Notes: a model not told the origin generated them from the sequence alone. DNA of 64,000 nucleotides from a virus (IMGVR_UViG_3300042396_000723:32001-96000); one strand, 5' to 3'; shown: positions 44,774 through 64,000, counted from the first letter of the stretch. Translations and numbers: made by a program.

Positions 44774-45739
44774 ATGTATAAAAAGATGACACCAACAGAA
44801 ACTTCAGTAAAATTAGCGATTGCACAAGTCTTGTCAATGCCTTCTGTTTTTAACGCACCTCTTTACGTCTTGGATTTTAACATTGACGAAAAAGGGACGG
44901 TATCAGGAAGGTTTAGAGATGCTGCTAGACCCCGTGTATTTAGCTATGAGATTGCAGACGATGGAATAACCTTTAGTCCCTTTGTCCCTGGAAGAATGGA
45001 TAGCAGTGACTGGAAAGTAGAAGACTGGGAGAAGTTTTCAGATGGCTATTCGTTTAGGATTGACGCAGGGATGCAAAAACGAACCGACAAGCCAAAATGT
45101 AATCCGGCTGTTTCTTTTTCTTGTGGAAAGGCTTGTGTTAGTTTAAAAAAGAAATGCAAAACAGATCCTCAAGATCCGACTTCTGTAGCCAAGAAAGAAA
45201 AATTAAAAGCTGTTATTAAAGAGGTTACAGTTACCGACAAGACGAGCAAAATTAAAGTCAGTAAGGATAAATCTAGTAAGCCCAAAGCCAATAAATTGAT
45301 CAATGACCTAGAACCCTTAGAGCCATTAAACACCTCTCGGACACCCACTGAAACCGTGTTACCTGAGCTAAGTTCTAACAATGTTGTTAAGGGTCTTGGT
45401 GGTAAAGTGGGCAGAGGAAAATATTCAGGCGATGCGGGTAGGGATTTTGAAGATACTGGCAAGATGATGAACTACCCACTAAAAAGCGTTGTAGCCACAA
45501 AGGACATGAAAGGGAAGGAAAAAGAAGTGGCAGACGTAGCAAAAATGTTGAAAGAATCCGAGAGAAATTGGCTCCCTGTTTATGTCAAAGAAGTTAGACC
45601 TTACGAGTATGAAGTTGTCGGAAATCATTTGACCCATGCAGCAGCAATAAAAGCAGGGTTTGAGAGGATTTGGACTATTCCGGTTGATTCAGATCCGGCT
45701 ACTCTCAAACAGATTCAAATGTTAACAAACGGTAATTAA
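44774..45739 (+). CDS. polymorphic effector family member A (shared N-domain, Cys knuckle, ParB-like C-terminus)
   Basis: 321 aa; N-terminal VKLAIAQVLSMPSVFNAPLYVLDF...GRFRDAARPRVFSY; KPKCNPAVSFSCGKACVSLKKKCKTDP; C-terminal YEYEVVGNHLTHAAAIKAGFERIWTIPV resembles the ParB fold. Confidence 0.5.
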   Translation: MYKKMTPTETSVKLAIAQVLSMPSVFNAPLYVLDFNIDEKGTVSGRFRDAARPRVFSYEIADDGITFSPFVPGRMDSSDWKVEDWEKFSDGYSFRIDAGMQKRTDKPKCNPAVSFSCGKACVSLKKKCKTDPQDPTSVAKKEKLKAVIKEVTVTDKTSKIKVSKDKSSKPKANKLINDLEPLEPLNTSRTPTETVLPELSSNNVVKGLGGKVGRGKYSGDAGRDFEDTGKMMNYPLKSVVATKDMKGKEKEVADVAKMLKESERNWLPVYVKEVRPYEYEVVGNHLTHAAAIKAGFERIWTIPVDSDPATLKQIQMLTNGN

Positions 45740-45780
45740 TTCCTGTGTTTATTTTACAATCTTATAAATTAAGATTTGAT

Positions 45781-45858
45781 GCTCCGCCAACAGAAATCCA
45801 GGCGAAATTAGCGATCGCCAAAGTACATCTCAATATTGGTAGAAGTGAACTTAATTAA
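45781..45858 (+). pseudogene. remnant of family N-terminal domain
   Basis: Translates APPTEIQAKLAIAKV... then stop; resembles N-termini of family members (PTEAQMKLxIAQ) but no in-frame start. Confidence 0.3.
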
Positions 45859-45907
45859 GCAAAAACAAAGTACAATAGACTCATCGCATTAAAAAGGAAA
45901 ATCAATC

Positions 45908-46132
45908 ATGAAAGCTAAAAAAACTGCTGTTGAAGGACAGAAGAAAATTAAAACCGTTCCCCCTGCTGTTGTAGATGAAGATGAGGATGTTTTAGGGGAA
46001 GGGGAGACATTGCAGGAATTTGACAAGAGAATGGAGAAAAAATATCCGAAAAGAAGTTATGACGATTTGACAGAAGAAGAAAAACGCGAACGTGCCAAAC
46101 GTTTTGTAGCTCAAGGGCCGGAAGACTGGTAA
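45908..46132 (+). CDS. small acidic protein
   Basis: 74 aa between family members A and B. Confidence 0.35.
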   Translation: MKAKKTAVEGQKKIKTVPPAVVDEDEDVLGEGETLQEFDKRMEKKYPKRSYDDLTEEEKRERAKRFVAQGPEDW

Positions 46133-46181
46133 ACTCCCCAGCCCGCACCCGTACAAAAAAATTTAGTTTATCTCAAAAACA

Positions 46182-61852: not shown

Positions 61853-61853
61853 C

Positions 61854-62129
61854 ATGGCTTATCGCGTTAAAATCAATGGTGTAGTGGCAATTGTTGAAAA
61901 TGGCGTTTGGTCATCCTCAACACCCCATTATGCCGAAATTCTAAATAACGTCTTGGCAATGGAGAAATTGGCAGCCATAGACCCTGATTCGCCTTTTTTC
62001 TGGCTTAATTCCCCTGCAACACCCGACCCAGATTGGTTAATTGCCACCGAAATAGCCAAAACCTTTGAGGGGACGGTGATGGATCAACCGATTACTCCTC
62101 TGACAACAGACGAAGATATTATTTATTAA
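61854..62129 (+). CDS. small protein between effector paralogues
   Basis: 91 aa tightly packed between F and G. Confidence 0.35.
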   Translation: MAYRVKINGVVAIVENGVWSSSTPHYAEILNNVLAMEKLAAIDPDSPFFWLNSPATPDPDWLIATEIAKTFEGTVMDQPITPLTTDEDIIY

Positions 62130-62133
62130 TGCG

Positions 62134-63585
62134 ATGAAGTTCAATCCAAATGCTACGGTTTCCGAGACTCAAATGAAGTTAGCGATCGCTCAAACGTTAT
62201 CGCTCCCATTTGCCTATAATTCGCCCGTGATGGTGTTGGATTTTGATTTAGGGGATAAGGATAGTAACAAGATAACAGGGCGATTCAAAGACTTATCCCG
62301 TCCCCGCGTGTTCAGTTTTGAGATAACCAAGAAGTCAGTTGTCTATAAACCCTTCGTGGCTCGAACTGATAGCACGGAATTGGATGCTAAATCGTGGGAA
62401 GATTTCTCGAAAGGTTACTCTTATCGAGTTGATAGTCAAGGCTTGAGAAAGGAAAAAGCTCAATGTGTCAAGCCGACTTCTTATAACTGTGGGAGTATTT
62501 GTATTAATATTAAGAAAAACTGTAAGGCTAATGCTGATGATGACTTTTCGGAAGAACGGATTGACAAGCTATTTAAGTTAAGAAGATATTATACAGACAA
62601 ATTATTGGAAATAAATCCAAGTACACAAAGAGAAGAAGAGACTCTCCTTGAAGAAAAAGTCCGAGAAGTCTCTCGACTACTTAAACCATACAATGATCGT
62701 CAAAAAGAGCTAGAGAAACAAAAACAGGAGCAAATCAAAGAACAAAGAAGCCGTCAAATAGAAGTATTGAAGTCCGAAGCTCAATCGAAAAGAACGCAAT
62801 TAATGGCATTGTCAAATGAATTAGATAGCAATCAAAAAATATCTTCTGATGCAAGAATTAAGGCATCAGTTCACCTTGAATTCGATGATCCAGAAAGCGG
62901 AATAAAAAGGGATCTTAAATTTGCTGAAAGTGTTGCTCTAAAACTGAATAAAAATGGACAAAAAGAAGCCGAGATATTCTCCCAAAATGAGTTAAAAATT
63001 GCCATAGAAGCAAAAAAAGAAATTGATAATATTTTAGACAAAGCTCGTGAGTTGATAAAGGTTGAGAAACCAGTTGATATTGGTGTAGCGTTTGATTCTA
63101 AGAATGTAAGAAAACCAGATGAATATAAGAAAGGGCTTGAGATGTTTTCTGAAATGATTTCGGTTCCCAATTTAAAAGAAACATTAGAAGTTAAAGAGAC
63201 AGATTCGGGAAGAAGTTATTACAAACAGGGAGCTATACACATGGCAAATCCAGATCCGGCGACAATCATCCACGAATCAGGGCATTGGCTAGAGGCTCGG
63301 AATATTCAGGTAAGGAGAGAAGTTAAAGAATTTTATAATAAAAGGACAGAAGGAGAGCCTATTGTCAAATTGAGCGAATCAACGGGTGATCTCTATGAAG
63401 ACTATGAAGTTACCAAGGTCGATAAATGGCTTCATCATTACATAGGGAAGTTTTATGGAAACCAGCCTAGTTCCGAGGTTCTGTCAATGGGATTAGAGAT
63501 GATGTATAAAAACCCCATTTACTTAGCCAAAAACGATCCCGAAATGTTTGATTTTATCTATTCTGTAGTTAGGCAAGGGAATTGA
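62134..63585 (+). CDS. family member G (N-domain, Cys knuckle, coiled coil, HExxH domain)
   Basis: 483 aa; MKLAIAQTLSLPFAYNSPVMVLDF; KAQCVKPTSYNCGSICINIKKNCKAN; IIHESGHW (63271-63285). Confidence 0.5.
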   Translation: MKFNPNATVSETQMKLAIAQTLSLPFAYNSPVMVLDFDLGDKDSNKITGRFKDLSRPRVFSFEITKKSVVYKPFVARTDSTELDAKSWEDFSKGYSYRVDSQGLRKEKAQCVKPTSYNCGSICINIKKNCKANADDDFSEERIDKLFKLRRYYTDKLLEINPSTQREEETLLEEKVREVSRLLKPYNDRQKELEKQKQEQIKEQRSRQIEVLKSEAQSKRTQLMALSNELDSNQKISSDARIKASVHLEFDDPESGIKRDLKFAESVALKLNKNGQKEAEIFSQNELKIAIEAKKEIDNILDKARELIKVEKPVDIGVAFDSKNVRKPDEYKKGLEMFSEMISVPNLKETLEVKETDSGRSYYKQGAIHMANPDPATIIHESGHWLEARNIQVRREVKEFYNKRTEGEPIVKLSESTGDLYEDYEVTKVDKWLHHYIGKFYGNQPSSEVLSMGLEMMYKNPIYLAKNDPEMFDFIYSVVRQGN

Positions 63586-63658
63586 AGTTAATGGGTCAAT
63601 CAAAGCAACAAAGCAAACGCTAAAATGTCTTCCTTGGAGAAAATATAGGAGGGTGGGA

Positions 63659-64000
63659 ATGCTAATAGATAAATCAACTGAAGAAGACTATCTCAATGGT
63701 CGTACTTTTGCTCAGGGTTATTTTTTGCGGATTGACGCAGCTAGAGCCGACGCAGCTAGAGCCACCCCAAAATGCAAGAATGGGGTTTCTTATAGCTGTG
63801 GGAAGTCCTGTATTAGCCTTAAGAAAAATTGCAAGTCAGAACCGCAAGATGAAAAAGGGAAACAAATTCTTAAGGCAGTAAAATCCAAGGCTTCTGAGTT
63901 TGCTAAAACAAAAGCAAAAACACCCAAAGCTACTCCAGTTAAGCCTACTGAAATTAAGCCAGATGTAGAAGCTCCTCCCCCTCCCCAAGGTGATATAAAG
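63659..64000 (+). CDS. family member H, partial (runs off window)
   Basis: Starts MLIDKSTEEDYLNGRTFAQGYFLRIDA...TPKCKNGVSYSCGKSCISLKKNCKSEP; contains a 15-bp tandem duplication; 3' end beyond window. Confidence 0.4.
   Translation, partial: MLIDKSTEEDYLNGRTFAQGYFLRIDAARADAARATPKCKNGVSYSCGKSCISLKKNCKSEPQDEKGKQILKAVKSKASEFAKTKAKTPKATPVKPTEIKPDVEAPPPPQGDIK

Follow-up and report, generated by a model that had tools for sequence, protein, structure and literature searches.

Eight paralogous genes in a 64,000-nucleotide stretch of viral DNA (IMGVR_UViG_3300042396_000723:32001-96000; the whole stretch is called the window) are interpreted here, with moderate confidence, as a family of virion-packaged effectors with a shared head-incorporation module. 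The genes begin at 44774 and run to the end of the window, within the + strand late block (41998-64000) of a close relative of Planktothrix phage PaV-LD. Bases 56000-64000 match PaV-LD at 95% identity, covering 77% of their length, and further parts of the window also match its genome. The proteins would be head-internal cargo of this PaV-LD-like cyanophage. Their common front end, the putative head-incorporation module or carrier, would consist of an alpha/beta N-terminal domain of ~90 amino acids (aa; the N-domain), a flexible basic linker with the motif R-x-D-[AS], a four-cysteine (Cys4) knuckle and one long helix. Behind it would stand a low-complexity linker and a variable effector, which may be an ADP-ribosyltransferase (ART), a zincin peptidase, a ParB-like domain or another module.

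A shared carrier in front of variable C-termini

All eight open reading frames (ORFs) of the first-pass annotation are present, all on the + strand. They are listed here together with a short ORF that precedes the fifth.

44774..45739, + strand: paralogue 1; N-domain, RIDA (aa 95), knuckle at nucleotides (nt) 45098-45157, weakly ParB/Srx-like C-terminus
46182..49466, + strand: paralogue 2 (1094 aa); RLDA, N-domain, RFDA, knuckle at nt 46530-46586, long C-terminus without assignment
56125..57549, + strand: paralogue 3; N-domain, RVDA, knuckle at nt 56515-56574, K/P/E-rich linker, two ~65-aa repeats
57651..59516, + strand: paralogue 4; N-domain, RFDA, knuckle at nt 57999-58058, ART domains at aa 205-396 and 431-621
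59528..59620, + strand: 30-aa ORF (MSLTTRKDAMLTESQMKLAIAQTLALPFMF, then a stop), the decayed N-terminus of an N-domain gene
59622..60716, + strand: paralogue 5; knuckle first (nt 59637-59696), C-terminal zincin HExxH peptidase (HEMSH, aa 263)
60713..61852, + strand: paralogue 6; knuckle at nt 60755-60814, helical linker, zincin HExxH peptidase (HELAH, aa 278)
62134..63585, + strand: paralogue 7; N-domain, RVDS, knuckle at nt 62464-62523, zincin HExxH peptidase (HESGH, aa 380)
63659..64000, + strand: paralogue 8, cut at the window end; tail of the N-domain with RIDA/RADA, knuckle at nt 63773-63832

The knuckle had been annotated as KPxC-x6-C-x3-C-x7-C. This formula matches nothing, although the example string given with it is correct; seven genes in fact read C-x7-C-x3-C-x6-C, and in 46182-49466 the first gap is six residues (C-x6-C-x3-C-x6-C). 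Exact knuckle matches number 7, against 0.02 expected in shuffled sequence. An N-domain of ~100 aa had been ascribed to most of the proteins and is full in five (44774, 46182, 56125, 57651 and 62134), which are 43-58% identical over ~160 aa with 34 invariant columns. The remaining three do not carry it in full: gene 63659 keeps just the last ~25 aa (the final helix), and in genes 59598 and 60713 the knuckle stands without an N-domain, practically at the protein start. Since DNA identity among the paralogues is only 64-81%, they are old copies held by selection. The isoelectric point (pI) is 9.1-9.7 in six of the eight.

An AlphaFold2 (AF2) model of the carrier, made from a 52-sequence alignment, reached a predicted local distance difference test score (pLDDT) of 83.5. 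The modelled N-domain comprises a helix (residues 11-22), a four-stranded sheet (32-71) and a second helix (80-91). It is followed by a disordered basic stretch (98-108), by the knuckle, in which three short strands bear the four cysteines (pLDDT 88-95), and by a long terminal helix (143-160). Over 52 divergent sequences C125, C136 and G47 are invariant and C117, G126, C129 and F49 nearly so, the four cysteines and the following helix being the most conserved part of the carrier. The flanks of the knuckle are rich in Lys/Arg. The Cys4 element is probably a zinc knuckle; a few family members have an altered spacing or just two Cys. The carrier has no model in Pfam or NCBIfam, in agreement with the first-pass remark that the N-domain plus knuckle is not a named family. 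It is known only through PHROGs, where it is lumped into phrog_16619 ('minor head protein') and phrog_33618, and no account of it was found in literature searches.

Downstream of the carrier the proteins differ. The annotated tandem ADP-ribosyltransferase-like domains were recovered in 57651 as two ART domains, 57% identical, with motifs intact in both copies (YRGI at aa 289/515, HASW[TS]S at 318/544, E-D-E at 366/591). The PF01129 score is 25.2 bits against a cut-off of 22.3, and judged by its sequence the C-terminus carries the Clostridial/Alt-type R-S-ExE ADP-ribosyltransferase signature. In PaV-LD the orthologue of paralogue 8, ORF085R ('minor virion protein'), runs on into a related ART domain.

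The HExxH domain is present in three genes, 59622, 60713 and 62134. Its H, E and H are invariant in a 14-sequence alignment, its AF2 model has a pLDDT of 90.8, and the HExxH on a helix, the predicted zincin alpha/beta fold and the third ligand are those of a zincin metallopeptidase (MPTase-like, M34/M90-like). By tblastn it is linked to the C-terminal peptidase region of P1 DdrB/P7 Prt (27.5% identity over 68% of the query, E 2e-3), and it also occurs at the C-termini of Bacillus phage MuF-type 'head morphogenesis' proteins. Paralogue 6 corresponds to PaV-LD ORF081R, labelled 'virion structural protein' in GenBank. For paralogue 5 the annotated gene (59598-60716) holds and its start does not: 59598 is a TTG, and the ATG at 59622 (MKKPQC...) is the most likely start. 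The ORF just before it, 59528-59620, codes for 28 residues from the start of an N-domain and then stops, the fossil of an internal deletion common to PaV-LD. Its TGA stop lies 1 nt ahead of the ATG of the knuckle-HExxH gene, with an identical arrangement in PaV-LD, which may allow translational coupling.

Between the second and third metallopeptidase paralogues lies an acidic 91-aa ORF (61854-62129; pI 4.05), equivalent to PaV-LD ORF082R. It gave no family match and could be an inhibitor or immunity-like partner.

Other annotated modules were modified. The 'ParB-like' assignment of 44774 has weak profile support: a 3-sequence profile matched ParB/Spo0J at E 0.02-0.85, and its relative P0009 carries PF02195, but 44774 itself has no Pfam match and its ParB motif position reads VGNHL, without the Arg of the GxxR-type motif. 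The 'tandem 45-aa units' of 56125 are in fact two ~65-aa repeats (33% identity, E 1e-8). In 46182 the GAGGK motif exists, but not as long repeats; there is one motif in two copies because of an internal duplication of 837 nt. Single-sequence searches of the PDB with five cargo regions gave nothing significant. Winged-helix (E 0.067) and NifU (E 0.025) candidates for the 46182 and 56125 C-termini were rejected as chance-level.

Relatives in purified virions and in other cyanophages

Direct support for the virion association of the family comes from Aphanizomenon phage CL131, whose ORF044, 045, 047 and 048 were found in purified particles with LC-MS/MS (liquid chromatography coupled to tandem mass spectrometry; PMC6293099). 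ORF045 gave 33 peptides and 123 peptide-spectrum matches (PSM), exceeding the capsid protein, and ORF048 gave 105 peptides and 175 PSM at 55% coverage; the carrier-module virion proteins have pI values of 9.1-9.7 (PMC6293099). We found one knuckle unit each in gp044 and gp047, four to five in gp048, and an N-domain with a knuckle in gp045. R-x-D-A stands ahead of the knuckle in gp045, gp047 and gp048, and RADF takes its place in gp044. The protein gp048 is a string of alpha/beta-hydrolase modules with knuckles between them. Because knuckle-only proteins of CL131 are virion proteins, the N-domain is not required for virion association; the motif plus knuckle unit, and not the N-domain, may therefore be the minimal loading element. 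The first-pass annotation had proposed virion-packaged proteins delivered to the host. Packaging is supported by these relatives, and delivery is what we infer.

The pairing of one carrier with varying enzymatic C-termini is confirmed and reaches far past this phage. An exhaustive profile search with the N-domain plus knuckle returned 234 cluster representatives (114 at E<=1e-10; lengths 45-1945 aa), while word-indexed protein searches were insensitive (23 close carrier matches, 5 for the HExxH domain, 1 for DUF2213). N-domain and knuckle nearly always co-occur, at times inside a longer protein, and long members with two to five knuckles are true multi-module polyproteins. The partner domains seen in 125 members form the repertoire of polyvalent proteins: LPD1, SNF2-type helicase (AAA_34/Helicase_C_4), InPase, GNAT, ART/PARP, ParB_N, protein kinase, lipases/esterases, LRAT, DnaJ and pentapeptide repeats. 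More carrier fusions lie on distant contigs of phages (L049, 8107-9735; L047, 1043-2188 and 14061-16118), among them a zeta-toxin/AAA_33 protein and an LPD1 protein, both of which open with the N-domain. Three family members can sit on one contig. Shared linkers blurred a single-linkage clustering of the C-terminal tails (one cluster held 73), and it is not used to count module types.

All contexts that were read are phage, and all identifiable hosts or markers are cyanobacterial: Planktothrix, Aphanizomenon phage CL131, Nodularia phages 2AV2 and kac65v161, Cyanobium-binned contigs and an NblA-carrying contig. In the window, PaV-LD, CL131, L042, L048 and L049 the genes lie by the portal/MuF gene or after a block of DUF2213, cement, capsid and DUF4054 genes; two members, P0146 and P0148, lie away from recognisable head genes. 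A degenerate knuckle pattern, run over the genomes, hit 14 loci, two of them true members (on contigs of Cyanobium metagenome-assembled genomes) and the rest chance matches.

The R-x-D-[AST] motif and competing explanations

The motif that precedes the knuckle is concentrated in a few late proteins. R-x-D-[AST] occurs 27 times in the 65 window ORFs. Of these, 12 are in the paralogues, nine in the DUF2213 protein, two in the portal and one in the major capsid protein (MCP; residue 9), 24 in all, leaving just 3 over ~12,700 residues elsewhere. The three non-paralogous proteins are as follows.

41998..43986, + strand: portal with an InPase effector domain fused to it (aa 507-630); RxD[AS] at aa 22 and again at aa 630
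51345..52859, + strand: DUF2213 domain, labelled 'head maturation protease' (aa 16-172), joined to an acidic, scaffold-like part; RxD[AST] occurs nine times
53715..54668, + strand: major capsid protein (PF09950); TTRLDAD at aa 7-13

For the DUF2213 protein, nine motifs compare with 0.74 expected, and none of 20,000 shuffles reached nine. The positions recur across divergent phages: capsid N-termini read TTRLDAD, EIRMDAP and VVRLDDA, with R-h-D in the CL131 and L042 capsid proteins at the same position as in the window MCP; DUF2213 N-termini read IRLDA, IRFDS or LRFDT, and the domain ends with R/H-L-D-S. Of the 123 knuckles in 111 distant members, 80 are preceded by the motif at a distance of 7-30 residues, and many giant members open with LExRLxRLDA or bear the motif 15-25 residues from the C-terminus. 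In the carrier model it sits in a low-confidence, probably flexible stretch.

A short motif shared by capsid, scaffold and internal proteins is the pattern of prohead-protease substrates in T4 and phiKZ, and by this analogy R-x-D-[AST] may be a prohead-protease site. The candidate enzyme is the DUF2213 domain, which PHROGs labels a maturation protease. His71, Ser127 and His157 are invariant in it across divergent phages, an order that resembles that of assemblin-type proteases. In the proposed sequence of events, the cargo would be loaded into the procapsid through the carrier module and the DUF2213 protease would then cut at R-x-D-[AS] sites. Cleavage would trim off the N-domain, or split the modules in polyprotein relatives; the pieces of knuckle plus effector would stay beside the DNA, be ejected together with it and find their host targets at an early stage of infection. 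The proteolytic-release step taken alone is put forward tentatively. A wider proposal, held no more firmly, is that DUF2213-head cyanophages possess a dedicated, portable loading and release system, in which N-domain and knuckle bring whatever enzyme is fused to them into the procapsid and an assemblin-like His/Ser/His DUF2213 protease reads R-x-D-[AS]. Capsid protein, scaffold and portal-InPase would also be processed at this site, and giant polyproteins would be cut at each knuckle boundary into free effectors that are injected. In function such a carrier would stand beside MuF and the T4 capsid targeting sequence, as an analogue that has gone unrecognised.

Further observations concern the proteins that bear the motif. 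In the window portal TQMDS lies just ahead of the InPase domain and YRQDA just behind it, and the CL131 portal (1393 aa) has YRADA at aa 503; this placement suggests that portal-borne cargo may also be released by cleavage. The acidic C-terminal part of the DUF2213 protein contains a tandem 33-nt repeat (52284-52349) encoding EDEEMMEDE. In the T1-like Pantoea phage AAS23 (L064, MK095606.1; 4126-6867) the 'scaffolding protein' is homologous to DUF2213 (E 2.5e-27); it reads QRFDS at its N-terminus and NLDS where the domain ends, and the MCP starts MTMKLDS. An x-h-D-[SA] signature may thus be general to DUF2213-type heads.

Several points weigh against packaging with proteolytic release. The protease role of the DUF2213 protein derives from PHROG labels and the invariant His/Ser/His, and the structure paper on Pa193, the only structural study, calls its DUF2213 homologue a possibly cleaved scaffolding protein. 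That protein, gp24, is the only DUF2213 relative in the PDB and is modelled for residues 286-326. No mapped DUF2213 cleavage specificity was found in the literature. The cargo parts are not significantly depleted of the motif (0 against 1.77 expected, P=0.16), the paralogue motif counts are not independent because the paralogues share ancestry, and R-x-D-[AS] could be a structural or docking element. The virion proteomics for the family come from CL131 relatives and not from the window phage, and similarity may be the only source of the labels 'virion structural protein' and 'minor virion protein' in GenBank. The necessity of the N-domain is doubtful because three of the eight paralogues are without it. 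Ejection into the host is a prediction for every member, as is zinc binding by the knuckle. No major tail protein is assigned in CL131 or this phage group, and the very abundant CL131 gp045 may have a structural role.

The alternative that survives best, unlikely as it is, keeps the proteins in the virion by another mechanism: the basic knuckle and helix would bind the packaged DNA or the portal, letting the cargo leave along with the genome, the N-domain would serve oligomerisation or as a chaperone, and R-x-D-[AS] would be an uncleaved docking or structural element. The knuckle-only virion proteins of CL131, the Lys/Arg residues that flank the knuckle, the strong conservation of the cysteines and following helix, and the non-significant depletion of the motif in cargo all agree with it. 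It does not account as well for nine motifs in the protease/scaffold protein, for a motif right where the DUF2213 domain ends and at the N-termini of MCPs, as is typical of prohead-protease substrates, or for its location in a probably flexible stretch of the model.

Packaged effectors also have to be set against external structural parts (tail tube, neck, decoration, fibres), in which the front end would be for attachment and the C-termini would be host-range or surface-acting domains. The array lies where T1-like relatives have their genes for neck, tail-completion and major tail proteins, directly upstream of the tape measure gene; with no major tail protein assigned in CL131, the rank of gp045 among its most abundant virion proteins, and lipase/esterase modules in CL131 gp048 and in P0111 that could act on the envelope, this gives the idea some ground. 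The C-termini are nevertheless of cytoplasmic type (ART, ParB, InPase, GNAT, SNF2, kinase, DnaJ, zeta toxin). Six of eight paralogues and the CL131 members are strongly basic (pI 9.1-9.7), whereas tail tube proteins are typically acidic, and long low-complexity linkers are present. A match to a tail-fibre, decoration or receptor-binding family, named in advance as evidence against effectors, was sought and none was obtained for the paralogues; nor did any tail family match. The fibre/spike-like genes stand apart in a cluster of their own (29935-37088), and copy number and content of the array vary between near-identical phages. External parts are accordingly judged improbable.

Equally improbable are unpackaged proteins, either late host-takeover factors in the producing cell or polymorphic toxins released at lysis against neighbouring cells, with a regulatory, oligomerising or DNA-binding module: the domain logic is like that of polymorphic toxins, the small acidic ORF next to the peptidase genes (61854-62129) could serve as an immunity-like partner, and P0146 and P0148 are remote from head genes, but CL131 relatives are in purified virions, the genes are co-oriented with and inserted in the head block, the R-x-D-[AS] signature is common to MCP, portal and protease/scaffold, and the peptidase is kin to head-packaged P1 DdrB and to MuF fusions.

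Known systems, gene turnover and significance

If the eight genes encode packaged effectors, their nearest counterparts are the polyvalent proteins of phages and conjugative elements, whose injection along with the phage DNA is predicted (Iyer, Burroughs, Anand, de Souza, Aravind 2017; PMC5512222). The repertoire is the same (ART, zincin MPTase, ParB, InPase also on the portal, LPD1, SNF2; PMC5512222), as are the head-gene neighbourhood and the predicted packaging and injection, and the relatives P0064 (three knuckles plus LPD1), P0068, P0111 and CL131 gp048 are likewise multi-module. In the window, by contrast, the modules are spread over eight genes, mostly with one effector each and each with its own carrier copy, so that the two to fifteen domains of disparate activity per polypeptide that mark polyvalent proteins are not found in its genes. 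The annotated split over separate tandem genes therefore holds for the window, while some relatives are polyproteins of two to five knuckles. The carrier is absent from the polyvalent-protein paper, in whose text the words 'cysteine', 'knuckle' and 'cyanophage' appear nowhere (PMC5512222).

MuF (SPP1 gp7/Mu gp30) fusions resemble the family in a constant head-associated N-terminal carrier, swappable C-terminal enzymes and a portal-adjacent position. None of the eight proteins matched PF04233 at E<=0.1, however, and in L042 and L048 a separate MuF gene adjoins the N-domain protein. The internal proteins IPI-III of T4 bear a capsid targeting sequence (~10-20 aa) that gp21 cleaves at (L/I)-x-E. 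Together with Alt they are basic, head-packaged and injected proteins that include an ART, with an N-terminal targeting element that the prohead protease removes at a short consensus also present in capsid and scaffold proteins, and the present family would follow the same plan; here the element is a folded ~90-aa domain with a Cys4 knuckle, the putative site is R-x-D-[AS] and cleavage would be expected by analogy. Inner-body or head paralogues of phiKZ-like phages share an N-terminal region, are head-internal and are cleaved by gp175 at a short motif. The likeness to phiKZ thus lies in multiple paralogous head-internal proteins with a common N-terminal region, and in a cleavage that is presumed here; the phiKZ paralogues are not known to carry swappable enzymes. 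T4 Alt is a head-packaged injected protein (summarised in PMC5512222), and DdrB, of the Dar/Ddr antirestriction system of P1, undergoes processing and is packed into the head (PMC5512222). The HExxH domain shares homology with the DdrB/P7 Prt peptidase region, a weak relation confined to the peptidase, whereas the P1 proteins lack the N-domain and knuckle and the DarA/Hdf loading hierarchy is unrelated. Without the MuF domain and, in the window, without the multi-domain make-up of polyvalent proteins, the family fits best among the head-packaged effectors, as a variant with a carrier of its own that is new.

The genes of the late block stand in the following order on the + strand.

Portal+InPase fusion; 130-aa protein homologous to a CL131 virion protein; paralogues 1-2
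Ant/KilA-like gene; Phage_tail_S morphogenesis protein; DUF2213 'head maturation protease'/scaffold protein
Cement-like protein; PF09950 major capsid protein; DUF4054 adaptor; paralogues 3-8

The Ant/KilA-like regulator gene (49642-50370) thus lies within the head block, and the stretch beside it is strongly unlike PaV-LD, where ORF062R-068R stand. The regions that flank the portal (39959-41926 on the minus strand, and 44331-44723) encode homologues of the CL131 virion proteins gp010, gp011 and gp030, of which gp011 is COG4386, tail-sheath-like. The terminase and the fibre/spike-like genes form their own minus-strand cluster. Matches to the window capsid protein were obtained in 997 phage records, mostly Drexlerviridae-like. 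Downstream of the paralogue array PaV-LD has a tape measure gene, and it encodes a 1584-aa tape-measure-like protein; PaV-LD has reportedly been described as tailless.

The array turns over rapidly. In a comparison of the window with PaV-LD, with flanks 97-99% identical, the following differences were found.

ParB-type gene 44774: present in the window, absent from PaV-LD
837-nt internal duplication in 46182 (47718-48604; compared with PaV-LD ORF061R): present in the window, absent from PaV-LD
C-terminal half of 62134 (knuckle and HExxH): present in the window, replaced by ORF084R in PaV-LD
ORF062R (ART): absent from the window, present in PaV-LD
ORF065R (N-domain protein): absent from the window, present in PaV-LD
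ORF066R (ART): absent from the window, present in PaV-LD

Copy number also differs among other PaV-LD-like contigs. Cargo genes that come and go in this way, in phages 97-99% identical apart from them, are a sign of a continuing arms race with the defences of the host.

How proteins are chosen for head packing and injection is understood for only a few models (T4, P1, P22/T7, N4 and phiKZ). The carrier described here is conserved and recognisable, has so far been seen in cyanophages only, and tags a large, fast-changing arsenal of ARTs, peptidases, lipases, helicases, kinases and a zeta toxin, in phages whose hosts include bloom-forming Planktothrix, Aphanizomenon and Nodularia, and also Cyanobium. 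It offers a route to listing injected effectors straight from cyanophage and metagenome sequence. The protease-site hypothesis is concrete and testable, and ties capsid maturation to effector release. If these proposals are true, the carrier could be used to load foreign proteins into cyanophage heads, and may serve as a tag for engineered cargo in cyanophages considered for bloom control.

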